A DNA stretch of 46,502 bases, from positions 1 through 46,502 of IMG/VR virus record IMGVR_UViG_3300033148_000641. The stretch is one strand, 5' to 3'. Of this stretch, positions 1 through 46,502 are shown piece by piece. The stretch comes from a virus. The stretch's first letter is position 1. Each line of letters begins with the position of its first letter. The notes below the pieces were generated by a model that saw nothing but the letters and a program-made list of their open reading frames with translations, did not search any database and was not told where the DNA came from. The position numbers and the translations under genes are program-made.

Positions 1-114
1 AAGGAATTTGGTATTGCCCGATTGGATATTGACCACATAGATATAATCGAAGTTGCACCATTAAGTACGAATCTTAAAATCTATGGCGGTCGCATTCATT
101 GTCCTAAAATGAAA
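1..114. repeat. Terminal overlap copy A: identical to 46389..46502 (circular or permuted assembly overlap; unit length 46388 bp)
   Basis: Direct comparison of the first and last 114 nt of the window. The repeat lies inside the DNA polymerase reading frame. Confidence 0.95.
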
Positions 115-1575
115 GACTTACCATTACCACCAGAAGCAACAATCAGAGACTTTGAATTACCCGAGATGCAGATGTATTGCGGTAATGATAACGAGGTCAC
201 ATGGTTAATAACCGAAGTCCTGATGGAAGCATTAGAACTACGTATTGCTATGGGAAAAGAATACGATGTTGACTTGCGTTCTAAGTCTGATGCTCAAATA
301 GCTGAAGTAGTTGTTAGACATGAGATGGACACCAAGTACAATATAAAACCAAAACGACCTAAGATAAAACAGGGTACGAAAGTCAGGTATAAAGCTCCTG
401 CTAATCTAAAGTTTGAAACTGAAGTGATGCAAGATATTTTTGAAGAATTCAAGAAGAGTATATTCGTAGTCGGTAAGTCAGGCCATATGGAATTCTTAGT
501 AACCGATTTTGAGCGTACCGAAGACGGTGAATTCAAACTAAATAAAAAGGGAGATAAGATACCCTATCATCCAATTAAAAATAAGAAGTTCAATATCGGG
601 AACACTACATATAAAGTCGGTATCGGAGGCTTACATAGTTGCGAGAAGAGCGCCGCTCATGTAGCTGGTAAATATCTCGTTAAAGAATATGACGTCGCTG
701 CGTTCTATCCCAGAATCATATTGAACAATAAATTAGCCCCTAAACATTTAGGCAAGCCGTTCCTGGAAATATTTGAATCTATTGTTAATCGAAGAATAAA
801 AGCCAAGAAAGCAGGTGATACAGTTGTCAATGAGAGTTTGAAAATTACCATCAACGGAACATTCGGCAAGCTAGGTTCTAAGTGGTCATTCCTATACGCT
901 CCGGACTTAATGCTTCAAGTCACCATAACCGGTCAGCTGTCATTATTAATGCTGATAGAACGGCTAGAGCTTGCCGGTGTACCGATAGTAAGCGGTAACA
1001 CTGACGGTATTGTCGCTAAAATATTACCAGAGCAGGAGCAGCTAGTTAAGGACATTGTCAGTGACTGGGAATTCGACACTGAGTATGAAATGGAAGAAAC
1101 TGAATATCTAGGTTTATACAGTCGTGATGTCAATAACTATATTGCTGTTAAAAAGAAAGGAGGAACTAAAGGTAAAGGAGCCTATGCTGATCCTCGTGAA
1201 AAAGCTAACCGATTGAAAATAAACCCATCTAATGAAATATGTGTAGACGCGGTCAGGGGCTTTTTAGAGAAGCAAATCCCTATTGAGAAAACAATAAGAG
1301 AATGCACAGATCCTAGCAAATTTGTAACCATAAGAACCGTGAATGGCGGTGCAGTTTATGAAGAAGAGAATCTAGGAAAAGCAATAAGATGGTATTATGG
1401 TAAACACGAACTGGATATGATCCGGTACAAAACTAGCGGGAACAAAGTACCAAGATCTGACGGAGCTGTACCGATGATGGATTTACCAAATGAAGTTCCT
1501 GATGATATGGATTTTGATTGGTACATCACTGAGTCAAAAGATATTCTCAAGAAGATAGGTTACGACAAATTGTAG
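1..1575 (+). CDS. DNA polymerase, family B-like, 3' part (continues from 46095..46388; whole gene 622 codons)
   Basis: Open from base 1 in the frame of ORF 22..1575. Motifs: YCGNDNEV (ExoIII-like), DVAAFYPRII (motif A, DxxSLYPS-like), KITINGTFGKLG (motif B, KxxxNSxYG-like), SGNTDGIV (motif C, DTDS-like). Confidence 0.85.
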   Translation, partial: KEFGIARLDIDHIDIIEVAPLSTNLKIYGGRIHCPKMKDLPLPPEATIRDFELPEMQMYCGNDNEVTWLITEVLMEALELRIAMGKEYDVDLRSKSDAQIAEVVVRHEMDTKYNIKPKRPKIKQGTKVRYKAPANLKFETEVMQDIFEEFKKSIFVVGKSGHMEFLVTDFERTEDGEFKLNKKGDKIPYHPIKNKKFNIGNTTYKVGIGGLHSCEKSAAHVAGKYLVKEYDVAAFYPRIILNNKLAPKHLGKPFLEIFESIVNRRIKAKKAGDTVVNESLKITINGTFGKLGSKWSFLYAPDLMLQVTITGQLSLLMLIERLELAGVPIVSGNTDGIVAKILPEQEQLVKDIVSDWEFDTEYEMEETEYLGLYSRDVNNYIAVKKKGGTKGKGAYADPREKANRLKINPSNEICVDAVRGFLEKQIPIEKTIRECTDPSKFVTIRTVNGGAVYEEENLGKAIRWYYGKHELDMIRYKTSGNKVPRSDGAVPMMDLPNEVPDDMDFDWYITESKDILKKIGYDKL

Positions 1576-2060: not shown

Positions 2061-2405
2061 ATGGGCGCTGAAGACTTCATATCACGAGCTGAAAAAACTA
2101 TAGCTAAAAAAGCTGAGATAGCTGAAATAGATATAGAAGACCATTATGTCAAACACGCTAAGAACAAAGGCTGCAAAGCGCTCAAGTTAATATTCCTCAA
2201 TAGAAAAGGCTTTCCAGACAGAACAACTGTTTGTCCAGGAGGGAGAGTCTTTTTCATTGAGTTTAAAAAGAAGGATAAGAAACCTTCACCAGCTCAAGTT
2301 ATAGTTAGAAGGATGCTAAAGAGATTTGGTTTTGAATATTATGTATGTGATGTAATAGGTCAAGCAGAAAAACACTTAAACAGATTCTTGGAGAACACAT
2401 TATGA
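2061..2405 (+). CDS. VRR-NUC domain nuclease
   Basis: GFPDRTTVCPGGRVFFIEFKKKDKKPSPAQ matches the PD-(D/E)xK signature (D...ExK) of VRR-NUC. Typical position next to an SNF2 helicase. Confidence 0.7.
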   Translation: MGAEDFISRAEKTIAKKAEIAEIDIEDHYVKHAKNKGCKALKLIFLNRKGFPDRTTVCPGGRVFFIEFKKKDKKPSPAQVIVRRMLKRFGFEYYVCDVIGQAEKHLNRFLENTL

Positions 2406-2818
2406 TGAATTTAAAGAACCGTTCAGTATTACATAAGGTAGCTGATGAAGTACCTCACAACACTAGCGTAGAACTATTACTCCATGCTATGTGGGCTAAT
2501 ATGGATAAAGGTAAAGGGATCGGTCTAGCTGCTCCTCAAATCGGTGAAAGTAAGCGGGTAATAATTATGGACACCGGAGTCATAACCATACAGATAATTA
2601 ATCCGATCATTACTAGACGTAACTTAGGTAAAGTCGTTAGCGAAGAGGGCTGTCTCAGTTTTCCCGGACTTCGTGTAAAGATGGCAAGGTATAAGCAGAT
2701 TGTCGTTGAAGGTTTTAATCCGGATTGGAAACCAGTCAAATATAAGTTACGTGGATTAGACGCATATGTAATCCAGCATGAGATAGATCATCTTAATGGT
2801 AAGACTATAGCTGACTGA
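2402..2818 (+). CDS. def: Peptide deformylase
   Basis: All three PDF motifs are present: GIGLAAPQIG, EGCLSFPG, HEIDHLNG. ATGA start/stop overlap with the upstream gene. Confidence 0.9.
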   Translation: MMNLKNRSVLHKVADEVPHNTSVELLLHAMWANMDKGKGIGLAAPQIGESKRVIIMDTGVITIQIINPIITRRNLGKVVSEEGCLSFPGLRVKMARYKQIVVEGFNPDWKPVKYKLRGLDAYVIQHEIDHLNGKTIAD

Positions 2819-6241: not shown

Positions 6242-6616
6242 TTAGTTAGCGAATACTACTGAACTTATATCATCACCATCATTACCAACACCACCTGATG
6301 ACTCTCTAGTTACCGTATGACTACCGACCAAAGTGGATGTTGCTCCGGTAGCATAATTTATAGCCGAACCAGAGGCAGTGGCCCCACTCGCTACCGCTGC
6401 ATAATTTCCGTCAAGCATTGCGTCAGTGTAGTTAATATCCCACACACCTGTACCCACATCGGTAATGCTAGAGACATTAAAGCTCCCATTAATAGACACA
6501 CCGGCAGAGCTATCAAAATTCACCCACGCCTTAGCACTACCCGCAATCACGGTTTCTGTTGGAACCTCTAGCGTATCATCCTTATTGGAGATATTGTCTG
6601 CTGAAATTTTACTCAT
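6242..6616 (-). CDS. Fibre-associated small protein, paralog 3 of 3
   Basis: Shares AKAWVNF...G...I..SFNVSSITD.G.G......T.AM...Y with 6629..6994 and 7010..7378. AGGAGA RBS. Confidence 0.7.
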   Translation of the reverse strand: MSKISADNISNKDDTLEVPTETVIAGSAKAWVNFDSSAGVSINGSFNVSSITDVGTGVWDINYTDAMLDGNYAAVASGATASGSAINYATGATSTLVGSHTVTRESSGGVGNDGDDISSVVFAN

Positions 6617-6628
6617 TTTGTTATCTCC

Positions 6629-6994
6629 TTAGTTTGAGAACACTTGCACATTTACTATATCAGGATCTACCGCGCTGGAATGCCTTATTTTAAACCCTGA
6701 TGAACTTCGTTGCCCTGTTACATCATAAGGAAAATCGGCGGTCAATGAACTTGTCAAACTCACGCTATAAGTGGCTGCAGACATGTTGTTTGTAAAATTA
6801 ATATTATAGTCACCTACATTATTATCAGTAATGCTTGATACATTAAAACCCTCTCTAATAGCGACTGTACCTGTACCATCAAAATTAACCCACGCTCTAC
6901 AAAGTTGCCCAATTTCATCACCACCTGACTCTTTAAAGATAGGAGGTGTGTTTACAGTCTTGGACTGGACTGCTGTTGTTACTATTGAACTCAT
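6629..6994 (-). CDS. Fibre-associated small protein, paralog 2 of 3
   Basis: CRAWVNFDGTGTVAIREGFNVSSITDNNVGDYNINFTNNMSAATYSV. AGGAGG RBS. Confidence 0.7.
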   Translation of the reverse strand: MSSIVTTAVQSKTVNTPPIFKESGGDEIGQLCRAWVNFDGTGTVAIREGFNVSSITDNNVGDYNINFTNNMSAATYSVSLTSSLTADFPYDVTGQRSSSGFKIRHSSAVDPDIVNVQVFSN

Positions 6995-7009
6995 AATTTA
7001 GTCCTCCTA

Positions 7010-7378
7010 TTAATTATCTAAAACGTGACAGTTAATCAAAGCTACGTCATTTAACGTGGACGCCGAAGTTGATTGGAAACCTGTTTTAATACCAAAACCA
7101 GAAACAGAATAACTCGCCACATTACATTGATAAGAAAATTCGGTAGCTACACTAGTTGCAAGATTACAATGTGAAACAACAGAATATGCTGCACTAACCA
7201 TATTATTTATAAAATTGACAATATAGTCACCGACACCATCATCAGTAATAGAACTAACATTAAATGAATCCCTGATAGTTACTGTGCCAGCACCGCTAAA
7301 ATTCACCCATGCTTTAGCCTGACCTGCTACAGCTTCAGCCGTATCAAAATCGTCACTACCCCTTAGTACACTTGACAT
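7010..7378 (-). CDS. Fibre-associated small protein, paralog 1 of 3
   Basis: AKAWVNFSGAGTVTIRDSFNVSSITDDGVGDYIVNFINNMVSAAYSV. The ATG at 7378 is preceded by AGGAGA and lies just after the fibre stop, so it is preferred over the 7405 start. Confidence 0.7.
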   Translation of the reverse strand: MSSVLRGSDDFDTAEAVAGQAKAWVNFSGAGTVTIRDSFNVSSITDDGVGDYIVNFINNMVSAAYSVVSHCNLATSVATEFSYQCNVASYSVSGFGIKTGFQSTSASTLNDVALINCHVLDN

Positions 7379-7389
7379 AAAATTCTCCT

Positions 7390-8187
7390 TTAAGTAATGA
7401 CCCAACGACCACCAGTGGCAATCGTTACGGTTCTTGTGTCTTCAATAGTAATTGGTCCCGCGCTCATGGCATTCTGATCAGCGGCAACCGTGATGTCTTC
7501 ATCAATGGATTGAGCGTTGAACATGATGGCTTTAACAGCAGCAGTACCTAGGAATTGACCACCGCCACCTAAAGAAACAATTTCAAACCAACCGTTAGCA
7601 GAATCATAAATAAGAGTGATTAATACTCCTGCTTCGATCTGACCTGCTCCAGGATCAATACCGTCTACCGTTTTAATATTTTTAACACCTAGCCCTTCCA
7701 CATTGACAGTGGACGCACCAGTGTTAGAAATATCTGGTCTGAATGTTACGGGTGTGCCGTCAACATAAGAACCTTGAGATACCGAACCAGCCGCTTGACT
7801 TAATACATAAGCATCAGCCGCTCCTGAATCAAGATAATAATTGGTATTGGCTAGAGCAACAGACCATTCAGTAATCGGTGAACTGATAGGATCATTCCCC
7901 GTATTAGCTGCAACTGTACTCTTATATAGAATACCATTGCTACCTTTAACCAATGCTCCCAGAGGATATTCAGTAAGAGTATCCCACTGAGCGATACCCT
8001 GTTCATTGATATGAGCAAGACCCTGAGTGAATAGCTGTTGTAGAAAATTAAAGTTTTCAAAGGTAGGGATTTCAGCCAACCATCCGTCATCATATTTTCC
8101 AGGACTGGTAACATCTGGATCTTCTATATTAGCTCCAGGAGCTCCGGCAGCCCATACTCTTCTTAAATCTGGCTTAGTTGTCGCCAT
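7390..8187 (-). CDS. Tail fibre protein
   Basis: N-terminal pattern DDGWLAEIPTFENFNFLQQLFTQGLAHINEQGIAQWDTLTEYPLGALV..GILYKS is typical of phage fibre N-termini. Position directly after the baseplate genes. Confidence 0.7.
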   Translation of the reverse strand: MATTKPDLRRVWAAGAPGANIEDPDVTSPGKYDDGWLAEIPTFENFNFLQQLFTQGLAHINEQGIAQWDTLTEYPLGALVKGSNGILYKSTVAANTGNDPISSPITEWSVALANTNYYLDSGAADAYVLSQAAGSVSQGSYVDGTPVTFRPDISNTGASTVNVEGLGVKNIKTVDGIDPGAGQIEAGVLITLIYDSANGWFEIVSLGGGGQFLGTAAVKAIMFNAQSIDEDITVAADQNAMSAGPITIEDTRTVTIATGGRWVIT

Positions 8188-25112: not shown

Positions 25113-25670
25113 TTAATCTTTATATTGGCTAGCAGTGACTTCACGATAATTAACGTGAGCTTCAATATTTGCTGCCAATACCGAGCCGTTTGTGATTCTG
25201 AAAACATGTTCAGTATTAGGTTTTAAAAGACGAGTGACCGCTTCGCCTCCGCTCCCAAATCCAGGTTTGCTTACATTCTTACCAGCTTCGCCGACAATAG
25301 CTTGATGTAATATCCTAGTTCCAACTGTATCTACCGTCACGCCTGTATAGAAATCTAGCTGAGTATCTCTCGTACTCATCCGATTCATATTGTTTGAGAA
25401 ATCTGTTTTAGGTTGTATGTTTCCTGCAACAGTAAAGGTCACATTTTCATAAACTTCAAACGTAACTAGTTCTTGATTAATATGAAACTCAGCCGCTTCA
25501 AAAATTGTTGCTAAATCACCCGTTTTGAATCTGACTTCCGAAATAGCGGCAGCACCTAGAGCCTCTATCTCAGCATGGAAATTAAACGCCGTACCTCTTC
25601 TAAGAGCTGTATCATGCCCGTTCTCAACATACAGGGAGGGGGATGGTCTGCCGTCTTCTAATGAACTCAT
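25113..25670 (-). CDS. Unknown protein, tandem paralog B
   Basis: Shares MSSLED, ENGH, VRF.TGDLA, INQELV.FEV, MNRMS.R.T.L.FY, NVSKPGFGSG and LKPNTEH.FRITN blocks with 25670..26215. Confidence 0.7.
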   Translation of the reverse strand: MSSLEDGRPSPSLYVENGHDTALRRGTAFNFHAEIEALGAAAISEVRFKTGDLATIFEAAEFHINQELVTFEVYENVTFTVAGNIQPKTDFSNNMNRMSTRDTQLDFYTGVTVDTVGTRILHQAIVGEAGKNVSKPGFGSGGEAVTRLLKPNTEHVFRITNGSVLAANIEAHVNYREVTASQYKD

Positions 25671-26215
25671 TATGAATACTCCTTGGGATTAACTTCTTTA
25701 TACACAATATGCACAACTACTTTTGATGTTAATGCTGAACTGTTAGTTATTCTAAAAAGATGCTCTGTATTTGGTTTTAAAATTCTTTCTGCCCCAACAA
25801 CACCGCTTCCGAATCCAGGTTTACTTACATTTTGACCGGCTACCCCTAAAACATCCTGTCTCATAAATAACGTACCATCAGAAGTAATAGTAGGTGCTTC
25901 ATAAAATTCAAGTTCAGTTTGTCGGCTAGACATCCTATTCATTTGACAACCGATGTTAGGGTTAATGGTTCCAGGAGCGCTGTATATCGTATCTTCAAAA
26001 ACTTCAAATATTACAAGTTCTTGATTGATATCAAATACAGCTGATAAAAATTCTACTGCGAGATCACCTGTTAGGAATCTAACGTCTACAACAGCATCCT
26101 TAGCTATGTCATGCACAACATTAAAACAGAAATCACTCGCGCTACGTAAGCCGGTTTCATGGCCGTTTTCAATAAATTGAGCAGGACGAGGCTTACTATC
26201 TTCTAATGAACTCAT
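25670..26215 (-). CDS. Unknown protein, tandem paralog A
   Basis: See 25113..25670. Roughly half of the positions are identical by eye. Confidence 0.7.
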   Translation of the reverse strand: MSSLEDSKPRPAQFIENGHETGLRSASDFCFNVVHDIAKDAVVDVRFLTGDLAVEFLSAVFDINQELVIFEVFEDTIYSAPGTINPNIGCQMNRMSSRQTELEFYEAPTITSDGTLFMRQDVLGVAGQNVSKPGFGSGVVGAERILKPNTEHLFRITNSSALTSKVVVHIVYKEVNPKEYS

Positions 26216-26246: not shown

Positions 26247-26999
26247 TTACATTGCATTATTATTATACATCATGTCTTCAAACACAATTAAATCTTCCAC
26301 CGCATCCATCGTAGGGTCGATTTGGTCATCATGTTTGTGGGTCATTAATGGTGTGAACTTACGGAACTCTTCTTTATAATCATGTACCCAATCGATGTCT
26401 CTAGGAAGATGAATATAACCGCTCGCAAAATACTTCACCACACCCATAGCCCGTAAGACCTTATCCGTGTTCCTTTGGATAGCCTCTACAGGTATCATGT
26501 AATCTTTCTTAATAGACTGTATTAGACTGGAACCTGAACTCTTGTCCTCAATCTTTACGACTTGAACTCCCATTGGCTTATATATCGTGGGCTTATGCTT
26601 AGTCCAAAATTCAACCATTTTAGATTCCAATTCAGGAGCTTCCCATTTGCCTCGTATTTGATCTACCAGAAAGATACCCTTAGACCGTGAACGCGCCCAA
26701 AGCTGAAACACAGAATAGTCATTATGTTCTTTGGTTTTCTGAGCGGTATCACCATACATCCTCATTAGGTCGATGTCTGCTGGTAGAACATCATAGTGTT
26801 TCCAGTAGCTATCTTTAAACATACCTCCACCGAGGGGAGAAGGGTTTTGCTGCATCTGACTAGAATAGGTGTACTTGTCCCCGAGTTCAAGGGTGCGTAA
26901 CTGTTTAAGATCGTGCTTCTGAGGCCAGAGCGGACTTCCTGGAGCTATTTGCTTGGGAATAATACCCAAGGCCTCAGCACTAAAAAGCATATTGCTCAC
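26247..26999 (-). CDS. terL: Terminase large subunit, nuclease half (frame +1 relative to the ATPase half)
   Basis: YSSQMQQNPSPLGGGMF, YGDTAQK..DYSVFQLWA, KIEDKSSG, NTDKVLRA, HDDQIDP: the motif series of a TerL RNaseH-like nuclease. Confidence 0.8.
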   Translation of the reverse strand: MSNMLFSAEALGIIPKQIAPGSPLWPQKHDLKQLRTLELGDKYTYSSQMQQNPSPLGGGMFKDSYWKHYDVLPADIDLMRMYGDTAQKTKEHNDYSVFQLWARSRSKGIFLVDQIRGKWEAPELESKMVEFWTKHKPTIYKPMGVQVVKIEDKSSGSSLIQSIKKDYMIPVEAIQRNTDKVLRAMGVVKYFASGYIHLPRDIDWVHDYKEEFRKFTPLMTHKHDDQIDPTMDAVEDLIVFEDMMYNNNAM

Positions 27000-27849
27000 C
27001 GCTGTGCATAGCTTTCAGTATTCCGTCAATGCTTATGGGGATTCCGTGGGTGTAATCGTCATTGTAAGGAGCGTCTAAAACCTCCTCGGATAACATGGCA
27101 GGGATTACTAGATGATGCCATTTATCACCTGAGCCACCTTTTAATAAATACCCACAAAGATCTTCCTCATGGATACGCTGCATAATAACGACCATAGGTA
27201 CTGTCTCAATTGCAAGACGTGAACGCATGGTGTTATTGAATCGGTTATTGATAGCGTTACGCTTAACGGCTGAATAGGCGTCATCAGGTTTTACAGGGTC
27301 ATCTATTACAAAGGCTCCCGTGAATCCTGGTTCCATTCGACCTGCACGGAAACCAGTAATCTGACCACCAGCAGGAGCAGCCATCATACCGCCCCCTACT
27401 TCTGTGAACCAACGCTTCTTACCTTTACTATCTGCACGTATCGCCATAGGCCAAAGCTCTTGGAATTCTTTGGATTGTACGGTTTCTTTAATCTTGGATG
27501 AATTCTCTTGAGCTAGGTCACCAGAATATGATGCATGAATATATTTGGAACGAGGGTTAAGAGCCAATCCACGACCAATAAAGTTGAGCACAACTTGTTC
27601 TGTCTTGGTATATCCTGGAGCAATGTTCACGATGAGCCTGTCTATCTTACCATCATATACCCCTTGGAGAACGTATTCAATGACGTAGTGATGCCAGTTA
27701 CGAAGCATCACTGTACCTTCACGCAGCTTAAAGAAGTATCTCATAAACTGCATACCGTCATTCTCTAACATGTATTTGAGCATACGACGTTCATTAAATG
27801 ACCAGTCTGTTTCCTCTAATTCAAATTGAGGTTCATTAGAAATCATCAT
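26980..27849 (-). CDS. terL: Terminase large subunit, ATPase half
   Basis: LIVNIAPGYTKTE (Walker A-like), GAFVIDDP (Walker B-like), VVIMQRIHEEDL coupling motif. Confidence 0.8.
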   Translation of the reverse strand: MMISNEPQFELEETDWSFNERRMLKYMLENDGMQFMRYFFKLREGTVMLRNWHHYVIEYVLQGVYDGKIDRLIVNIAPGYTKTEQVVLNFIGRGLALNPRSKYIHASYSGDLAQENSSKIKETVQSKEFQELWPMAIRADSKGKKRWFTEVGGGMMAAPAGGQITGFRAGRMEPGFTGAFVIDDPVKPDDAYSAVKRNAINNRFNNTMRSRLAIETVPMVVIMQRIHEEDLCGYLLKGGSGDKWHHLVIPAMLSEEVLDAPYNDDYTHGIPISIDGILKAMHSGEQYAF

Positions 27850-40487: not shown

Positions 40488-40681
40488 ATGATCCAGCATC
40501 AGGGTGTTTCCGTTGTCGCAGAGACCGACATTGTCCTGGATGTCCTAATGAAGTTAAGAGGGACATGTTAAAGACTTTAGAACAGAGTACAGGGGCGTCA
40601 GTTGTTATGCTCCTATTTATAATACTATTTAGCTTACTAGGTGAAAAATTATGCACTTCCTTATTGACTTTGATAAACTAG
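40484..40681 (+). CDS. Small Cys-rich protein with C-terminal hydrophobic segment
   Basis: 65 aa with CFRCRRDRHCPGCP followed by VVMLLFIILFSLLG. Confidence 0.4.
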   Translation: MNDPASGCFRCRRDRHCPGCPNEVKRDMLKTLEQSTGASVVMLLFIILFSLLGEKLCTSLLTLIN

Positions 40682-41274
40682 AAGTCCTATCTAAATCAGA
40701 AGATAAAGAACTTCTGGATACATTCATAGAGGATAATGGCCTCTCTTTAGCTATCGCTTTAATAGATGGCGCGGATGAACTTGCGCTAGAGTTTAGTATA
40801 TCGGAGATGCATCGACTACATACTAATATCGGTTCCAATGGTAAACAGTTCGATGATGAAGATGAGGAGTCTGAAGCTATCTGGGAAATCCTGGAAGAAA
40901 GCGAAGATGACTTCCCCGACTTCACCAAAGCATTAGGTAAGAAGATCGCAAAGGGTGACGGTGAAAAACCTACCAAGGGTTCTACCAAATCGTCTAAACC
41001 TAAAGCCGCTCCTAAGAGTAAAGGTATCCGAGCCAAAGATCTCATGGGTATGAGCTTCTGCAAAGGTCCGAAGGATCCTCGTAAGGGCACATCGTTTGAA
41101 ATCTTCACCAGCTTCCTAGAAGACAATCTGGACGAAGCTACATTCGATGAGCTGGTCGCCGCATTCATTAAAGGGTATGTACCAAAGAATCCTAAGAAAC
41201 CAGTAGACGAAGCTCTAGGTCGCGCTTATGTACGTGATGCATTTAATGGCGGTTACATTGAGGAGGGATTGTAA
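40651..41274 (+). CDS. Hypothetical protein with acidic N-half and Lys/Pro/Ser linker
   Basis: 207 aa. KPTKGSTKSSKPKAAPKSKG linker. Architecture parallels 39848..40312. Confidence 0.6.
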   Translation: MHFLIDFDKLEVLSKSEDKELLDTFIEDNGLSLAIALIDGADELALEFSISEMHRLHTNIGSNGKQFDDEDEESEAIWEILEESEDDFPDFTKALGKKIAKGDGEKPTKGSTKSSKPKAAPKSKGIRAKDLMGMSFCKGPKDPRKGTSFEIFTSFLEDNLDEATFDELVAAFIKGYVPKNPKKPVDEALGRAYVRDAFNGGYIEEGL

Positions 41275-41277
41275 GTT

Positions 41278-42537
41278 ATGCGTATCCTGATAACTCATTT
41301 TCACATCCAAGATTGGGGCGGTATTGTTAACTACAGCGAGTTTATGGCGCGTGGTTTAAAGCAGCTCGGTCATACGGTAGATAGCGTTATGCTGAAAAAT
41401 AAGGGGATTACCGGAGTACCTAAAATAAAGGACAGGAGCGGACAGCAGGGTTGGGAATACGGCGATGGTTTAGGGTTATGGATGCATCAGAAATCTGGCT
41501 GGGAAGGTATGTTCCAACTGAATTATGCTGCAAATATGGAACAATGGGGAGACACAGCAGATAGTTACGACCTCATCCTACATCATATCCCTGTGCCGAC
41601 CTGCACCAAAGCTAACAAAGGTGACGAAGCTTGGTTACAAGTATTCAAGAACCACATGACACCTCAGTTAGTTGTTGTGCATGATGGTAATATGCAGAAG
41701 CTATATCCTCATATCCTTAATATCGTAGATGATATTGAAGGTGTGGTCTGTGTTCATGATGCAGCATTTAACTCATGCAGCGTATTACCAGTACGGAGAG
41801 CGTTCATTCCCAATCCTCACAATGTGCCTGAAGATCTTTCTGTCAAAGAACCTTATGATCGGTCAGATACCATCCTATCATTGCAAACATTTAAACGCTG
41901 GAAACGTGTCGATGATCTCATCCGTGCGATAGCGTATATGGACGAATTTACAAATAAGATGATCTGCGGCGGTGGTATTGAATATCACTATATGACTTCC
42001 AAGGATAAATGTAAACCTGAATATATCAATGAAGACGGTAGTCGTATTTGGGATAAAGCGTTACTGAACGGTATGGATTATCTAGGGTACATTACCACCG
42101 AAGAACGTGATAAGCATCTAAGTGATGCTAAGTTATTAGTAGATCCTAGTTGGTCTAAGAACTATTCTAAGTTGGGCTGTCACTTCAACCGCGTGATGGT
42201 TGAAGCCATGATTCAGGGTTGTGTACCAGTGTGTACCGACTTAGCTATGAAGGGTAGTTTCTTGTTTGAAGCTAATCGGAATTATATTGAGATACCGTAC
42301 GATTCAACTCCTGAGCAATATGCTAAGATCTTGGATGACGCTATCGAAGATGAATGTTTGTTACATGGAATCCAAGATAACAATATTAAGATGTTATCGT
42401 TATTCGCCTGTGAAACAATAGCTCAAACGGTTCTAGATTTTGCAGATGGGCAGGGTGGTGAAGTAGGTGAAGTCACTGATGAAATCTACGCGGCTGCTGA
42501 AAAGAAGATGGAGCATTTCGATGAATTTAATTCCTAA
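41278..42537 (+). CDS. GT-B fold glycosyltransferase (GT4/GT1-like)
   Basis: N-terminal MRILITHFHIQDWGGIVNY...LGHTV and C-terminal VMVEAMIQGCVPVCTD (E-x7-E region pattern). Confidence 0.7.
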   Translation: MRILITHFHIQDWGGIVNYSEFMARGLKQLGHTVDSVMLKNKGITGVPKIKDRSGQQGWEYGDGLGLWMHQKSGWEGMFQLNYAANMEQWGDTADSYDLILHHIPVPTCTKANKGDEAWLQVFKNHMTPQLVVVHDGNMQKLYPHILNIVDDIEGVVCVHDAAFNSCSVLPVRRAFIPNPHNVPEDLSVKEPYDRSDTILSLQTFKRWKRVDDLIRAIAYMDEFTNKMICGGGIEYHYMTSKDKCKPEYINEDGSRIWDKALLNGMDYLGYITTEERDKHLSDAKLLVDPSWSKNYSKLGCHFNRVMVEAMIQGCVPVCTDLAMKGSFLFEANRNYIEIPYDSTPEQYAKILDDAIEDECLLHGIQDNNIKMLSLFACETIAQTVLDFADGQGGEVGEVTDEIYAAAEKKMEHFDEFNS

Positions 42538-43393
42538 AGAGGAAGAACTCAATACGTTATTTTATTGGATGCAGGAGCGTCATCGTATACACCATCGTAA
42601 ATTATCTAGTTGTTCAAAGCCATGGACTGAGGATCCTGTTCTTCAGGATTACAGGTTCTGTAATGTATTTCGTGAATTAGACACTACCACTATCTGGATG
42701 AAAGAAAACATTCGTGACAAGTACGCCGACCATCCTTATCTATGGTTTGCCTTTGCAGTGGCGCGTCGTATTAATCTCATCGATACGCTTGAAGATCTTG
42801 GTAAGCTACTGGTTGAGTGGGATTCAGGGTTCGCTGAGGACGTATTAAACAGTCGCAAAGAAGCAGGTCTACAGATTTACAACGGCGCGTATATGCTTAC
42901 AACAGGCGGGCAAGCTGTTCCAAAGAACCATCATACCTGTGTGAATATTGGAGACCCCCTGTGGAACAGACGAGAGCATATCAGTGAAATTCTCGAGTCA
43001 CAGCAACTATCATTGGAAGGGGTTTTCAATTTATTTGCTACTGGTAATCCTGGAATTAGTGGGTTCATAGCTTATGAAATGGTCACTGATATGCGACATA
43101 CTCGTTATCTAAAAGATGCTCCTGATATTTATACATGGGCTAATGCCGGTCCAGGAGCTATGCGAGGCCTCAATAGAATCTTTGAACGTCCTATTGATAA
43201 GAAATTAAAACCTTGTCAGTCTAATACGGAAATGTTATACTTGCTCCAAGAGGCTGAGTTATATCTGCCCGAGTCATTTCCTAAGTTGGAGATGAGAGAT
43301 ATAGAACACTCACTATGTGAATTTGATAAGTACCAACGTGTGAAAACTGAGAAAGGTTTTCTAAGACAAAAATATAATGGAAGAGGTGAATAG
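42521..43393 (+). CDS. aGPT-Pplase-like / DNA base hypermodification family protein (tentative)
   Basis: KPWTEDPVLQDYRFCNVFRELDTTTIW matches the signature I recall for this family. The ATG at 42521 has a GGAG RBS and overlaps the glycosyltransferase 3' end by 17 nt. Confidence 0.5.
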   Translation: MNLIPKEEELNTLFYWMQERHRIHHRKLSSCSKPWTEDPVLQDYRFCNVFRELDTTTIWMKENIRDKYADHPYLWFAFAVARRINLIDTLEDLGKLLVEWDSGFAEDVLNSRKEAGLQIYNGAYMLTTGGQAVPKNHHTCVNIGDPLWNRREHISEILESQQLSLEGVFNLFATGNPGISGFIAYEMVTDMRHTRYLKDAPDIYTWANAGPGAMRGLNRIFERPIDKKLKPCQSNTEMLYLLQEAELYLPESFPKLEMRDIEHSLCEFDKYQRVKTEKGFLRQKYNGRGE

Positions 43394-43395
43394 CT

Positions 43396-43644
43396 ATGTT
43401 TCATGTGTGGAAAGCAGAACCTATTGAATTTGAAGGTATTGAGCATGGATATTCTTTCGCTTCTGATTATTATAAATGTAGAGAAATAAGAGGGATCAGA
43501 CATTATAGAATAACTATGAAAGGTTTATGGAAAATCAAAGAAGGTCGTCTGTGCAAACAGACCCATAACTTTATGGTGTATTTGGCTGGTTCTGGTAAGA
43601 GATTAGTTAATGAAGAAAAATATGAAAACGGAGACATAAGATAA
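43396..43644 (+). CDS. Hypothetical protein
   Basis: 82-aa ORF with TAATG coupling to the next gene. Confidence 0.5.
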   Translation: MFHVWKAEPIEFEGIEHGYSFASDYYKCREIRGIRHYRITMKGLWKIKEGRLCKQTHNFMVYLAGSGKRLVNEEKYENGDIR

Positions 43645-44648
43645 TGTACGTTATTAACGCTAAGAATGTAAATGATGCTTTATCCCAAGGTATCAAATTA
43701 ATGATGACAATGGGGGAAGGTTTAGGGAGCCGAGCAGGAGATACACTTGAAGTACCGTTCCCTGTTTCAACAGTGTACCATCATCCTCAACAGCGGGTTC
43801 TTATTAGTAAGGTTCGCGATGCCAACCCCTTCTTCCATCTAATGGAGGCTCTGTGGATTCTAGCAGGTCGTGAAGATGTTAAATTCCTAGCCGAATTTAA
43901 TGCACGTATGCGAGACTACAGCGACGATGGTCTTGTATTCAATGCGCCTTATGGTCATCGCTTAAGAGAAGGGATTAGTATCCTTCAGGATCAACTTGAA
44001 AAAGTAATAATGGTGTTAAAGAAAGACCCTTATACTCGTCAAGCGATTTGTCAAATCTGGGATGATGCTGATTTAGGTAGGGCTACCAAAGACAAAGCGT
44101 GTAACATGTCTATCGTGTTCCGTGTACGAGACGGTAAACTTTGTATGACGGTCTACAACCGTTCCAATGATGTGATCTGGGGAGCATACGGTGCGAACGC
44201 GGTTCAGTTTAGTATGATCCAGGAATATGTAGCCGCTCATCTTGGTATGCCGATGGGTACTTATACTCAGGTTAGTAATTCATATCATATCTATACCAGT
44301 GGTGTCGCAGGTGATCTATGGTTTAAGCTATCTAAGGAATATGATATTACCGCCATTCCTTACGACCAAGTGGATCAAATGGTAGTTATGCATCATGATG
44401 ATATGGAAGCGTTTGAAAAAGATCTTCGCTTATTCTTTGCTATCTATGATCAATATAACATCGACGAAATTCTAAATACAGATAGCTGGGAATCTGCATA
44501 CTTTATTAATCTAGTTATTCCTATGCTAAATGTTCATCGTCAGCATAAATTACATGGCGCTAATGAAGCTTTGAATTATACCAGATATATCCAAGCCGAT
44601 GACTGGTGTATGGCTGCTGAAGATTGGCTAGAGAACAGGGTGAAATAA
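43644..44648 (+). CDS. Thymidylate synthase-fold enzyme (ThyA-like; candidate dUMP hydroxymethylase)
   Basis: Aligns by eye to ThyA: FFHLMEALWILAG (E58 region), APYGHRLR, KKDPYTRQAICQIWD, KACNMS (catalytic Cys), YNRSND, SYHIY. About 100 aa of unrelated C-terminal extension. Confidence 0.7.
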   Translation: MYVINAKNVNDALSQGIKLMMTMGEGLGSRAGDTLEVPFPVSTVYHHPQQRVLISKVRDANPFFHLMEALWILAGREDVKFLAEFNARMRDYSDDGLVFNAPYGHRLREGISILQDQLEKVIMVLKKDPYTRQAICQIWDDADLGRATKDKACNMSIVFRVRDGKLCMTVYNRSNDVIWGAYGANAVQFSMIQEYVAAHLGMPMGTYTQVSNSYHIYTSGVAGDLWFKLSKEYDITAIPYDQVDQMVVMHHDDMEAFEKDLRLFFAIYDQYNIDEILNTDSWESAYFINLVIPMLNVHRQHKLHGANEALNYTRYIQADDWCMAAEDWLENRVK

Positions 44649-44649
44649 G

Positions 44650-45165
44650 ATGGATATCAATCAATTACATATATGGCGTAAAGGTTTAAAAGTTGAGCGT
44701 ATGCATACCATCACTCATGTTACCCCTTACAATAATGGTTTCCATAGTTGTAACGCGGCTCTGATTGCTCATGAGCTATGTCAACTCAATGGTATAGATA
44801 GTGCATCAGTCGTCCGCTATATGTTATTACATGACATCGCTGAAGCGTATGTCGGCGACACTCCTGCTGATGTTAAGAGGGATTTCCCTGCAATCAAATT
44901 AGCATTGCAAGAAGCCGAGGGACATTGGGAAGAACGAAATATACCCAACATACCTGATTTAGCCATTACTGAAAAGATTATTGCTAAGATAGCAGATACT
45001 GCTGAGCTAGGTATGTATTGTCTTGAAGAGCTTCATTTAGGTAATAAGAACGCGATGCCCGTACTACTTAAAGTTATACAATTTCTTCAGGAATACCCTA
45101 AAGAGATAGCAGGTGTCAGTCAATTCTTAGACCATTTCATAATCGTAAAAGCAGGGGAACTATAA
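44650..45165 (+). CDS. HD-domain phosphohydrolase (YfbR-like 5'-deoxynucleotidase family)
   Basis: H...LLHDIAEAYVGDTP...D pattern. Confidence 0.7.
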   Translation: MDINQLHIWRKGLKVERMHTITHVTPYNNGFHSCNAALIAHELCQLNGIDSASVVRYMLLHDIAEAYVGDTPADVKRDFPAIKLALQEAEGHWEERNIPNIPDLAITEKIIAKIADTAELGMYCLEELHLGNKNAMPVLLKVIQFLQEYPKEIAGVSQFLDHFIIVKAGEL

Positions 45166-45542
45166 TGGAAGTCAACGACTATCAAGTAGGCGGTGATCAC
45201 TATGTTAGAGATTACCAACATTGGGATTTTGTAATCGATACAGGTATGCATTATCTATTAGGATGCGCTACCAAATACATCACACGCTGGAGAAAGAAGA
45301 ACGGTCTTGAGGATCTTAAGAAGCCCATCCATTATTTAGCCAAAGCTGAAGACGCGGGTATTGAAGCTCCTGTATGTAGTCCTATTTTCGTAGACCGTTT
45401 TGTGCAGGAAATGGAAACTGAAGATGCGATGATTGTTCGCGCTATTATGCAGAATGACTTCAAAGCCGCTAAATATCTAATCGAAGGACTGATAGCCCTT
45501 ACCGAATCAGGTGCAGATCGCAACTACGTAGATCAGGATTAA
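45165..45542 (+). CDS. DUF3310 (SaV-like) protein
   Basis: YQVGGDHY...WDF...GCATKYITRWRKKNGLEDLKKPIHYL pattern. Confidence 0.6.
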   Translation: MEVNDYQVGGDHYVRDYQHWDFVIDTGMHYLLGCATKYITRWRKKNGLEDLKKPIHYLAKAEDAGIEAPVCSPIFVDRFVQEMETEDAMIVRAIMQNDFKAAKYLIEGLIALTESGADRNYVDQD

Positions 45543-45546
45543 TACC

Positions 45547-46095
45547 ATGTCATTAATATCATATCACAGATTAAGAGAATTGGTCAACGAAGGAGTCATC
45601 AATGCTCCCCTTGAAAACATCAACGGCACGAGCATTGATATCACAATAGGCGAACATATTCTGGTTGAGCAACCTCATAGTTTCTGTTATGAAGTGGTTG
45701 ACCTGAAGTCTAAAGGTTCCCTTAAATTGTTAGAGAAAACTATTCCAGATATTGGATACGGTTTACGCCCGAATGAGTTTATCCTCGCAACCAGTCAAGA
45801 GACGTTTAACCTACCCAATAATATCTCTGCGGAATACAAACTGAAGAGCTCATTGGCGCGTTCAGGCCTTGAACATCTGATGGCGGGTTGGTGTGATCCT
45901 GGATGGAACAAGAGCAAGCTAACTCTTGAGCTTAAGAACTTAACTCAGAACCATATCCTACTTCTAAAACCAGGAATGAAGATCGGTCAAGTTGTTTTCT
46001 GGGAATGTGACCCTGTTCCTGATTATGCTGATTATAGCAATACTGGTCAATACAATGGTCAGGAAACTGTAACGGCGAACAAAGGCGTTCGCTAA
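45547..46095 (+). CDS. dcd: dCTP deaminase family protein
   Basis: LRPNEFILATSQETFNLP, KSSLARSGL, GWCDPGW, LTLELKN, KIGQVVF: the Dcd/dUTPase-fold motif series. Confidence 0.8.
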   Translation: MSLISYHRLRELVNEGVINAPLENINGTSIDITIGEHILVEQPHSFCYEVVDLKSKGSLKLLEKTIPDIGYGLRPNEFILATSQETFNLPNNISAEYKLKSSLARSGLEHLMAGWCDPGWNKSKLTLELKNLTQNHILLLKPGMKIGQVVFWECDPVPDYADYSNTGQYNGQETVTANKGVR

Positions 46096-46502
46096 TGGAT
46101 CTGTCTAAACTTCTCACTTTAGATATTGAATGCTATGAGAATTATTTCTTAGCTATGTTCAGGAAAGTTACCACTGGGCAGATTATGTATTTTGAGAAGT
46201 TTAATGATTCTGATTTAAACAAGGTCAACATATTCCATATCATCAATAAATATACCATCATCACTTTCAATGGTATTAAGTTTGATGAGGTCGTACTCTC
46301 TGCTGCTCTTGCTGGTTTTAGTAACAAGGCGATTCACAAAGTTGTTAAGACACTTATCGAGGACAGACGGCAACCTTGGCAAGTTCGTAAGGAATTTGGT
46401 ATTGCCCGATTGGATATTGACCACATAGATATAATCGAAGTTGCACCATTAAGTACGAATCTTAAAATCTATGGCGGTCGCATTCATTGTCCTAAAATGA
46501 AA
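46095..46502 (+). CDS. DNA polymerase, family B-like, 5' part (runs off the window end; continues at base 115)
   Basis: The ATG at 46095 forms a TAATG overlap with the dcd stop. Open to base 46502. LDIECYE (ExoI) and FNGIKFD (ExoII). In frame with 1..1575 through the 114-nt overlap. Confidence 0.8.
   Translation, partial: MDLSKLLTLDIECYENYFLAMFRKVTTGQIMYFEKFNDSDLNKVNIFHIINKYTIITFNGIKFDEVVLSAALAGFSNKAIHKVVKTLIEDRRQPWQVRKEFGIARLDIDHIDIIEVAPLSTNLKIYGGRIHCPKMK
46389..46502. repeat. Terminal overlap copy B (identical to 1..114)
   Basis: Direct comparison with the window start. Confidence 0.95.

Follow-up and report, generated by a model that had tools for sequence, protein, structure and literature searches.

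Which base does a phage make when it carries relatives of the enzymes by which other phages hypermodify thymidine, and has a glycosyltransferase (GT) next to them where the kinase of those phages would be expected? The question is raised by a cassette of seven open reading frames (ORFs) in the virus record IMGVR_UViG_3300033148_000641 (IMG/VR), which was analysed over positions 1 to 46,502 of the record (the window). An earlier note on this DNA had read the seven ORFs as a thymidine hypermodification module with an undescribed combination of genes, and had suggested glycosylated 5-hydroxymethyl-deoxyuridine (5-hmdU) as an outcome. We consider it moderately probable that the cassette gives phage DNA in which glycosylated 5-hmdU stands for some or all of the thymidine; comparative genomics supports this outcome, and the modification is a prediction.

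Family assignments were obtained from profile searches with Pfam, PHROG and NCBIfam. The cassette and the polymerase gene that follows it comprise the following features:

41278-42537, plus strand: GT-B glycosyltransferase, 419 amino acids (Pfam Glycos_transf_1, E 1.2e-7)
42521-43393, plus strand: PF18723 protein, 290 amino acids from its ATG (PF18723, E 7.6e-49, full-length)
43396-43644, plus strand: orphan ORF of 82 amino acids, no family match
43644-44648, plus strand: thymidylate synthase (TS)-fold enzyme, 334 amino acids (PF00303, Thymidylat_synt, E 6e-21; phrog_5131, E 1.5e-102)
44650-45165, plus strand: YfbR-like HD 5'-deoxynucleotidase, 171 amino acids (PF12917, E 1e-13)
45165-45542, plus strand: DUF3310 protein, 125 amino acids (PF11753, E 2.8e-7)
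45547-46095, plus strand: dCTP deaminase, 182 amino acids (PF22769, E 7.4e-31; TIGR02274, 99.9 bits)
46095-46502, plus strand: 5' part of the DNA polymerase gene, whose reading frame runs across the window junction and a 114-bp repeat
1-1575, plus strand: remaining 3' portion of this polymerase gene, with 1-114 repeating the sequence of 46389-46502

The seven ORFs are co-oriented, tightly packed and placed directly upstream of the polymerase gene, at exactly the coordinates given earlier, and the families then named for the GT, the TS-fold enzyme, the HD protein, the DUF3310 protein and the dCTP deaminase were recovered by Pfam and NCBIfam. The ATG of the PF18723 gene (42521) precedes the GT stop codon (42537), which gives the 17-nt overlap described before, and a GGAG lies 8-11 nt 5' of this ATG; the proposed coupling of the GT to the pyrophosphorylase (Pplase)-like gene was confirmed. 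A longer, GTG-initiated ORF of the PF18723 gene begins at 42467. Apart from this junction, intergenic gaps in the cassette do not exceed 2-4 nt, and several junctions overlap or share a base. The polymerase ATG begins at 46095, on the last base of the dCTP deaminase stop codon. Joined across the window ends, the 622-aa polymerase matches phrog_1252 'DNA polymerase' (E 1.2e-182), which confirms the identity assigned to it; the 517-aa fragment at 22-1575 alone had no Pfam match. Because an identical 114-bp repeat is present at both ends (1-114 and 46389-46502), the contig is indicated to be a circular or permuted assembly of ~46,388 bp, and the window comprises an entire phage genome, circularly permuted and ~46.4 kb long.

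All published thymidine hypermodification pathways go through a kinase and an amino-acid:DNA transferase (AADT) (PMC5889632, PMC8989533, PMC13458397). Known kinase, AADT and Nmad5 sequences used as tblastn queries found nothing above noise in the window. The same held for hidden Markov model (HMM) profiles of the kinases (25 members), AADTs (18), Nmad5 (6) and TAGTs (9), searched without filters (--max); the kinase profile stayed below 4 bits and the 18-locus AADT HMM below 3 bits anywhere. The single Walker A match ([AG]x4GK[STG]) in the long ORFs of the window lies inside the primase-helicase. The earlier statement that the genome encodes no P-loop kinase was borne out by these searches. Within the cassette, Pfam detected neither a TET_JBP nor a TAGT domain, and neither a dioxygenase nor a methyltransferase was found there; the TAGT profile matched nothing in the window above noise, and no tailoring enzymes of the pyridoxal-phosphate, radical-SAM, FAD or acetyltransferase type were seen among the ORFs scanned. 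The kinase-dependent hypermodification set is incomplete in this genome: the hydroxymethylase is present, and the 5-hmdU DNA kinase and the AADT were not found. The combination is accordingly unlike the published kinase-plus-AADT pathways (PMC8989533, PMC13458397), as the earlier note had held. It is not confined to this genome, and versions of the module recur in many metagenomic phage contigs.

This recurrence was followed in two samples. In the first, IMG/VR scans with the window proteins yielded 42 loci, which were annotated by iterated local HMM searches with Pfam spot checks. Three of them (L006, L008 and L009) have the order of the window, i.e., GT-B, PF18723, TS, HD, DUF3310, dCTP deaminase and polymerase. 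The closest relative (L007, 67% identity in the PF18723 protein) has the same flanking genes and no GT-B; exactly that slot is filled by two TAGT (PF20691) genes, a case of non-orthologous displacement by an accepted family of DNA glycosyltransferases (PMC13390438; bioRxiv 10.1101/2023.12.21.572611). More distant GT-B homologues (41-49% identity) adjoin a PF18723 gene, a TS-like gene and a YfbR-like HD gene, in both gene orders, on unrelated backbones (one type has AEP-TOTE primase, UvrD helicase and PolA; another backbone is that of an 82-kb phage). The second sample came from a profile-guided scan of IMG/VR, in which PF18723 relatives were encoded on at least 557 contigs; 76 new loci were analysed. 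In 50 of these 76, PF18723 is followed by TAGT and TS without a kinase; 22 have a kinase, four have neither and none has both. All 48 full-length TS genes of the new TAGT loci encode C146, D169 and N177.

A census was taken over 124 loci with PF18723 (41 that combine the first IMG/VR scan with two cultured phages, 76 from the second scan, six distant GT-B contexts, and the window). A P-loop kinase lies within 5-8 kb in 44 of the 124 and a glycosyltransferase in 71 (61 TAGT, 10 GT-B). The two were never found together (0/124), and the nine loci with neither, L032 and L059 among them, are mostly truncated contigs. With few exceptions, the linked TS genes are of the dUMP type. Some kinase-free loci carry additional genes between PF18723 and TS, namely TAGT, an HAD phosphatase and a sugar-nucleotidyltransferase in L029 (5519-8891), and an FkbM methyltransferase, a radical-SAM/SPASM protein, GT61 and TAGT in L060 (4989-10403), which suggests more elaborate glycans. 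Loci of the L065 type (PF18723-TAGT-TS, ~40-45 IMG/VR contigs) also keep a ~108-aa protein without a family, a weakly Pyr_excise-like (T4 endoV-like) protein upstream and a PD-(D/E)XK nuclease downstream, with an AlkB-like 2OG-Fe(II) oxygenase in 18 loci and a dUTPase in 12. Both kinds of partner occur in cultured phages. Brevibacterium phage LuckyBarnes (L052, MF668275) has the order TS-TAGT-TAGT-PF18723 in gp38-gp41, and no kinase match was obtained in this cassette region; its TS carries Asn at position 177 (dUMP type) and a ~280-aa C-terminal extension, and had been called a dCMP hydroxymethylase in the genome announcement (PMC6588365). In Microbacterium phage Sinatra (L053, gp54-55), PF18723 follows a Ploopntkinase3 (PF18751) kinase labelled 'thymidylate kinase' in the record, so the partner kinase of PF18723 is not always PF18748. 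The cassette is therefore not unique to the window; it represents one form of a module that many viral metagenome contigs carry.

The census leads to the PF18723 protein, which is found with either partner. The earlier note had assigned this protein to the aGPT-Pplase family and had named beforehand a search of 42521-43393 against such family profiles as the test on which the assignment should stand or fall; it gave PF18723 at 167 bits against a cutoff of 25, over profile positions 4-277 of 281, and phrog_2396 at E 1.7e-61. The family was thereby confirmed, with the correction that the protein belongs to clade 1 (the M6 gp55/YuA gp14 type) and not to the characterised clade 2, PF18724. It is 42% identical to YuA gp14 (M6 gp55 type) and to Sonora gp42. 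Pfam now lists PF18723, once 'aGPT-Pplase clade 1', as '5-hmdU DNA kinase, helical domain' ('HMUDK_hel'); JGI records label its members 'alpha-glutamyl/putrescinyl thymine pyrophosphorylase clade 1'. The kinase neighbour or fusion on which the current Pfam name is based was not encountered in the window, where the GT-B gene is the upstream neighbour. A Pfam scan of the YuA and Sonora proteins assigned YuA gp10 (M6 gp51 type, the characterised glycine:DNA transferase) to PF18724 'ADDT', YuA gp13 (the P-loop kinase) to PF18748 and YuA gp14 to PF18723. For the window protein, PF18723 was the sole Pfam report at E ≤ 0.1, with no match to the PF18724 profile. To our knowledge, no function has been published and no activity demonstrated for PF18723 (clade 1). 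M6 gp55 could be omitted from a lysate reconstitution without effect (PMC8989533), and the later structural and enzymological papers deal with clade 2 only (PMC11472151, PMC13458397). The presence of PF18723 alone consequently does not predict AADT chemistry.

The AlphaFold2 model of the PF18723 protein is all-alpha, with 13 helices and a pLDDT of 96. The sole meaningful Foldseek matches in the PDB were weak ones to the Ogg glycosylases 3fhf and 3n0u (3fhf: probability 0.99, E 0.08, TM-scores 0.37/0.48), and a GPGAxRG hairpin motif is conserved in the family; as modelled, the protein has an HhH DNA-glycosylase-like fold. In an alignment of 72 diverse homologues, 29 columns are invariant, among them many Arg and acidic residues and C266, and R20, W35, R51, D54, T57, R82, F182, D190, D202, R215, C266, E267, D269, K270 and R273 are invariant in all partner classes. 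The motif quoted in the earlier note, PWTEDPVLQDYRFCNVFRELDTTT, is present in the translation of 42521-43393, and the FCNVFRE signature pointed to the right family; its Cys (C47), however, varies between C and T across the family, and the invariant Cys is C266 in an LCEFDK motif. Two covarying residue sets at positions 186/192/257/259/262, E-R-E-R-E (window, YuA) or Q-K-(H/C)-Q-Q, suggest two putative pocket types, and both sets occur with kinase as well as with GT partners. Members with a kinase partner and members with a GT partner do not separate in a neighbour-joining tree but are interleaved. From this interleaving and the common invariant core it follows that the job of PF18723 is probably the same in both settings, i.e., the protein probably acts alike on 5-hydroxymethylpyrimidine DNA beside the enzyme that loads the hydroxyl, be it kinase or GT. 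Ten long proteins from the top 150 representatives were inspected for fusions; they contained no second Pfam domain save one N-terminal HhH-GPD fragment, and no GT fusion.

The same residues lend themselves to a different account, in which the PF18723 protein would itself carry out the decisive transfer: its Cys would attack C6 of the 5-substituted uracil and expel the substituent (water or a sugar added by the GT), another nucleophile would join the exocyclic methylene, and the GT would decorate the product or supply the leaving group, so that the final base would not be a simple O-glycoside. In an hhalign comparison, EHSLC266 of the window protein falls on the catalytic ETxLC247 of AADT, and D190 on D162, in a weak alignment (probability 10%, E 0.003). 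C266 lies in the invariant CExDK motif, the many invariant acidic and Arg residues look enzyme-like, and the two covarying pocket flavours resemble specificity tuning. In YuA Pplase2, K159 and K248 bind the glycine carboxylate (PMC13458397); the same weak alignment places E186 and E267 of the window protein at these positions, which would suggest a different co-substrate. The published chemistry, however, depends on phosphate as the leaving group, and a kinase was not found in the genome; M6 gp55 and ViI gp160 were unnecessary for product formation in lysates (PMC8989533), three related loci (L003-L005) do without PF18723, and the pairing of the same PF18723 subtypes with kinases or GTs is hard to square with a substrate-specific leaving group. 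The PF18723 sequence profile found nothing among PDB chains even at E ≤ 1, and Foldseek with the model did not retrieve the solved Pplase2 structures, so the homology to AADT rests on the weak hhalign match and the literature. We regard a PF18723 transferase of this kind as unlikely. The preferred reading remains that sugar is loaded by the GT, with PF18723 as a partner that is not obligatory, given that the M6 homologue is dispensable in vitro and L003-L005 lack the gene.

The GT model (AlphaFold2, pLDDT 96) consists of two Rossmann-like domains, as in GT-B enzymes. Foldseek against the PDB retrieved retaining GT4-type enzymes at E ~1e-15 (HepE 4xsu at E 9e-16, BshA, PimA, MshA and TarM) and also the T4 alpha-glucosyltransferase with UDP-glucose and DNA (1y6f, E 8e-13, TM-scores 0.64/0.68). 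Residues 301-390 align by profile with HepE, including a C-terminal NDP-sugar-binding motif that ends in ...VEAM; in the EX7E motif, conservation does not extend to the first Glu, and H302, N304 and R305 are conserved in its stead. By its modelled structure the protein is a GT4-like GT-B of the retaining type, and its gene context together with the resemblance to T4 alpha-glucosyltransferase makes it a predicted DNA 5-hmdU glycosyltransferase. In a collection of 5.8 billion proteins, 277 homologues were detectable, many of them on ~45-kb contigs, and tblastn found none among 50,697 cultured phage records. One homologue outside these settings (38% identical) is encoded in L051 (NCBI LSSF01000016.1), a contig assigned by binning to Thermoplasmatales archaeon SG8-52-4. 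It lies between a pair of radical-SAM genes, one of which encodes a B12-binding enzyme, and a gene for a fusion of PolIII-alpha with a UDG domain; neither TS nor PF18723 was found at this locus, which may represent a different DNA hypermodification system on a contig that is probably viral rather than archaeal.

A GT of this fold might instead modify the host envelope or a virion protein, with PF18723 as a functionless relic and plain 5-hmdU in the DNA as in SPO1/SP8. The closest solved structures are indeed mostly envelope or small-molecule GT4 enzymes, the JGI label of the homologues is 'glycosyltransferase involved in cell wall biosynthesis', and no sugar-nucleotide genes were found in the window. 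Such a target is nevertheless improbable for a gene that is part of an operon for nucleotide metabolism and replication and shares 17 nt with the PF18723 gene, whose invariant columns indicate strong purifying selection. The GT-B/PF18723/TS neighbourhood is maintained across unrelated phages, TAGT DNA glycosyltransferases take the GT position in L007, and the DNA-bound T4 enzyme is among the good structural matches.

The base that would receive the sugar was assigned from the TS-fold enzyme. Aligned with MilA and ThyA by HMMER, and with E. coli ThyA by MAFFT, the protein shows Asp in place of L143, and C146, D169 and N177 at the other diagnostic positions (ThyA numbering); positions 142-147 read K-D-x-x-C-N. 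According to the published position rules, N177 marks dUMP and Asp marks dCMP as substrate, L143 marks a methyl product and Asp or Glu the hydroxymethylases, and D169 is replaced by Asn in 5-hydroxy-dCMP synthases (PMC13326640). The pattern of the window enzyme is identical to that of YuA gp17 (L002), whose phage family derives hypermodified thymidine from 5-hmdU (PMC8989533). The best cultured relatives are enzymes of the M6/YuA type (39% identity over the full length), and all scores to NCBIfam thymidylate-synthase equivalogs were far under their cutoffs (e.g., 77 versus 175 bits). From these residues the enzyme is very probably a dUMP hydroxymethylase that forms 5-hmdUMP. That it is an ordinary thymidylate synthase, a dCMP hydroxymethylase or a 5-hydroxy-dCMP synthase, and the cassette a source of dTMP or of glycosylated cytosine, is highly improbable: the PHROG and NCBIfam label is 'thymidylate synthase', the best PDB sequence match is the CMP hydroxymethylase MilA, and 5-hydroxycytosine-making TS homologues with downstream glycosyltransferases are known (PMC13326640), but the three candidates were rejected, respectively, on Asp at 143 (Leu in ThyA), on N177 (Asp in MilA and T4 gp42) and on D169 (Asn in 5-hydroxy-dCMP synthases), the equivalog scores and the nearest characterised relatives (M6/YuA) speak against them, and the co-encoded dCTP deaminase removes dCTP and does not feed a cytosine pathway.

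The remaining genes of known family fit the classical scheme of 5-hmdUTP supply and dTTP depletion, which is summarised in PMC8989533. The dCTP deaminase exceeds the TIGR02274 cutoff (99.9 versus 92.8 bits) and matches phrog_1663 (E 5e-46); it would supply dUTP, and then dUMP, and deplete dCTP. The HD protein also has HD_3/HD matches and a match to NF003009 5'-deoxynucleotidase (E 5e-7) under the cutoff of that model; a homologue follows the TS gene at the same position in YuA (gp18) and most related loci, and the enzyme would bias the nucleotide pool via hydrolysis of dTMP/dNMP. The DUF3310 protein matches phrog_5839 (E 1.4e-25) and, more weakly, PHROGs labelled 'nucleotide kinase', and its gene co-occurs with the TS-like gene in kinase-type and GT-type loci; going by these PHROG labels only, it is possibly a 5-hmdUMP nucleotide kinase. 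The 82-aa ORF had no match in Pfam, PHROG, NCBIfam, cultured phages or IMG/VR. It is absent from the syntenic L008 and L009, where TS follows PF18723 directly, its last base is part of the TS start codon, and it is probably a lineage-specific insertion.

We propose the following pathway, in which the pre-replication steps are drawn from family membership and diagnostic residues, and the post-replication steps from gene context, fold and comparative genomics. The dCTP deaminase would form dUTP, which a host dUTPase or another activity would convert to dUMP, the substrate from which the TS-fold enzyme would make 5-hmdUMP. The HD nucleotidase would drain the competing dTMP, the DUF3310 protein and/or host kinases would raise 5-hmdUMP to the triphosphate, and the polymerase encoded downstream would incorporate 5-hmdUTP into DNA. 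After replication, the GT-B would move a sugar from a host NDP-sugar to the 5-CH2OH of 5-hmdU in DNA, giving an O-glycoside analogous to base J, with an alpha linkage expected if the GT is retaining like its structural neighbours. The PF18723 protein may be a base-flipping, HhH-glycosylase-like paralogue of the amino-acid:DNA transferases that acts on the same 5-hydroxymethyl-pyrimidine substrate, and would be a conserved but non-essential partner of the hydroxyl-derivatising enzyme, a kinase in the published systems and a glycosyltransferase here. Its step may be base recognition and presentation, the setting of a sequence context, or a further Cys-dependent reaction.

Several points weigh against this pathway. 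The L143D and N177 rules are correlative. GT4-like enzymes usually modify lipids, sugars and small molecules, and the DNA target of the window GT is taken from context. In L003-L005, the GT-B is directly followed by TS without PF18723, so the partner is dispensable there. A subclade (L031, L034, L036 and L041) pairs PF18723 and TAGT with a TS of dCMP type (N177D), which means that PF18723 is not strictly tied to uracil; these phages may glycosylate hydroxymethylcytosine with a PF18723 partner. The invariant Cys and several invariant acidic residues of PF18723 fit a catalyst better than a passive adaptor. Neither a dUTPase nor NDP-sugar synthesis genes were found to be encoded in the window, so two steps of the pathway rest on assumed host functions. 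The literature searched gave no case of a phage that forms O-glycosylated 5-hmdU via a TS enzyme, and there may be an earlier computational remark on a link between Pplase and TAGT, families reportedly defined by Iyer et al. in 2013.

A wider proposal is offered tentatively, and with more reserve than the glycosylated 5-hmdU of the window itself. PF18723 could be a general partner module for 5-hydroxymethylpyrimidine DNA that serves either a kinase or a GT and adds a new Cys-dependent or base-flipping step, and the kinase-free design of PF18723, GT and dUMP hydroxymethylase could define a large unrecognised class of environmental phages with base-J-like hydroxymethyluracil. The family comprises ~5,500 clusters at 50% identity and has stood as a large orphan beside the kinase in every studied thymidine-hypermodifying phage; the present loci give the first functional handle on it. 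The rule of either a kinase or a glycosyltransferase is directly testable, and LuckyBarnes is available as a cultured phage. If the prediction is true, O-glycosylated 5-hmdU made via a TS route joins the phage thymidine hypermodifications and a base-J-like base exists outside the eukaryotes; the DNA would resist many restriction enzymes, with effects on the sequencing and amplification of environmental viromes, and the cassette enzymes could serve for 5-hydroxymethyluracil labelling or mapping.

The rest of the genome encodes, on the minus strand, the tail sheath, major head protein, portal and terminase and, on the plus strand, an Enc34-type replication module (DUF2800 nuclease, Enc34-like SSB, VRR-NUC, SNF2 helicase and Prim-Pol/D5 primase-helicase). 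Megablast of the cassette region against the 50,697 phage records gave no match, and no cultured close relative was found. A 207-aa acidic protein just 5' of the GT gene (40651-41274, plus strand) has no family match but is conserved at the same position in L007-L009, with two copies in L008 and L009. The large terminase subunit is represented by two consecutive minus-strand ORFs with a 20-nt overlap (26980-27849 and 26247-26999) that match the N- and C-terminal halves of phrog_38, respectively; a frameshift, a sequencing error or a genuinely split gene could account for this. A peptide deformylase (PF01327, E 7.7e-38) is encoded at 2402-2818 (plus strand) between the VRR-NUC nuclease and the SNF2 helicase. 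Tandem paralogue sets at 6242-7405 and 25113-26215 (both minus strand), with three ORFs of ~120-130 amino acids sharing a '...AKAWVNF...NVSSITD...' core and two of ~180 amino acids that both start with MSSLED, are probably structural or decoration proteins.

The thymidine hypermodification clusters of M6/YuA (also ViI, PhiW-14, SP10, PaMx11 and SH-Ab 15599) are among the closest known systems. The window shares with it the TS-like enzyme (39% identical), the PF18723 protein (42% identical), the YfbR-like HD and DUF3310 genes and the position of the cluster just 5' of the DNA polymerase. It differs in having no P-loop 5-hmdU DNA kinase, clade-2 AADT/Pplase2 or Nmad5, in the GT-B that is translationally coupled to PF18723, and in a dCTP deaminase instead of a dCMP deaminase.

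The order of events resembles the glucosylation of 5-hydroxymethylcytosine in T4-type phages by a dCMP hydroxymethylase and alpha/beta-glucosyltransferases (with TAGT in T6), where a TS-fold hydroxymethylase acts before replication and a GT then acts on the hydroxymethyl group in DNA; the window GT model also resembles T4 alpha-glucosyltransferase (1y6f, TM-scores 0.64/0.68). The predicted base of the window is uracil and not cytosine (N177), however, its GT belongs to a distinct GT4-like family, and T4 has no PF18723 partner. With base J (JBP and JGT) the window would share the end product, a hexosyl-O-methyl-uracil in DNA. In kinetoplastids, a 2OG/Fe dioxygenase oxidises T within DNA to hydroxymethyluracil, and the sugar is added by a GT-A; in the window, a TS homologue would form the hydroxymethylated base already in the nucleotide, and a retaining-type GT-B would be expected to form an alpha linkage.

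Post-replicative glycosylation of a 5-hydroxymethylpyrimidine in phage DNA is also the theme of the 5mYOX/TET clusters with TAGT or GT-B (Burke 2021; Pyle 2024) and of the ParB-independent thymidine dioxygenase clusters (PMC13229309). The GT-B of the 5mYOX/TET clusters resembles T4 beta-glucosyltransferase, whereas that of the window resembles GT4 enzymes and T4 alpha-glucosyltransferase, and the window cassette lacks a detectable dioxygenase or methyltransferase. Pyle et al. reported that mined GT-A and GT-B DNA glycosyltransferases are often near ThyS genes and that some of these pathways may be based on 5-hydroxymethyluracil; Pplase or HMUDK proteins are not mentioned there (bioRxiv 10.1101/2023.12.21.572611). 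Phages of the SP-15/YerA41/Carin-5 type carry sugar-bearing thymidine derivatives and encode a dCTP and/or dCMP deaminase, a TS homologue and GTs near the polymerase. They differ in their size (145-220 kb), a dihydroxypentyl/phosphate linker, large sugar-modification blocks and a UDG-fused PolA, and no PF18723 protein is reported for them (PMC12686479). Glycosylated thymidines are known only from this type and from eukaryotic base J. The scheme of the cassette is known in kind, i.e., pre-replicative synthesis of a hydroxymethylpyrimidine followed by post-replicative group transfer; it is set apart by a predicted uracil instead of a cytosine base, a GT4-like GT-B and a clade-1 Pplase partner without a kinase, and its chemistry is a prediction throughout.

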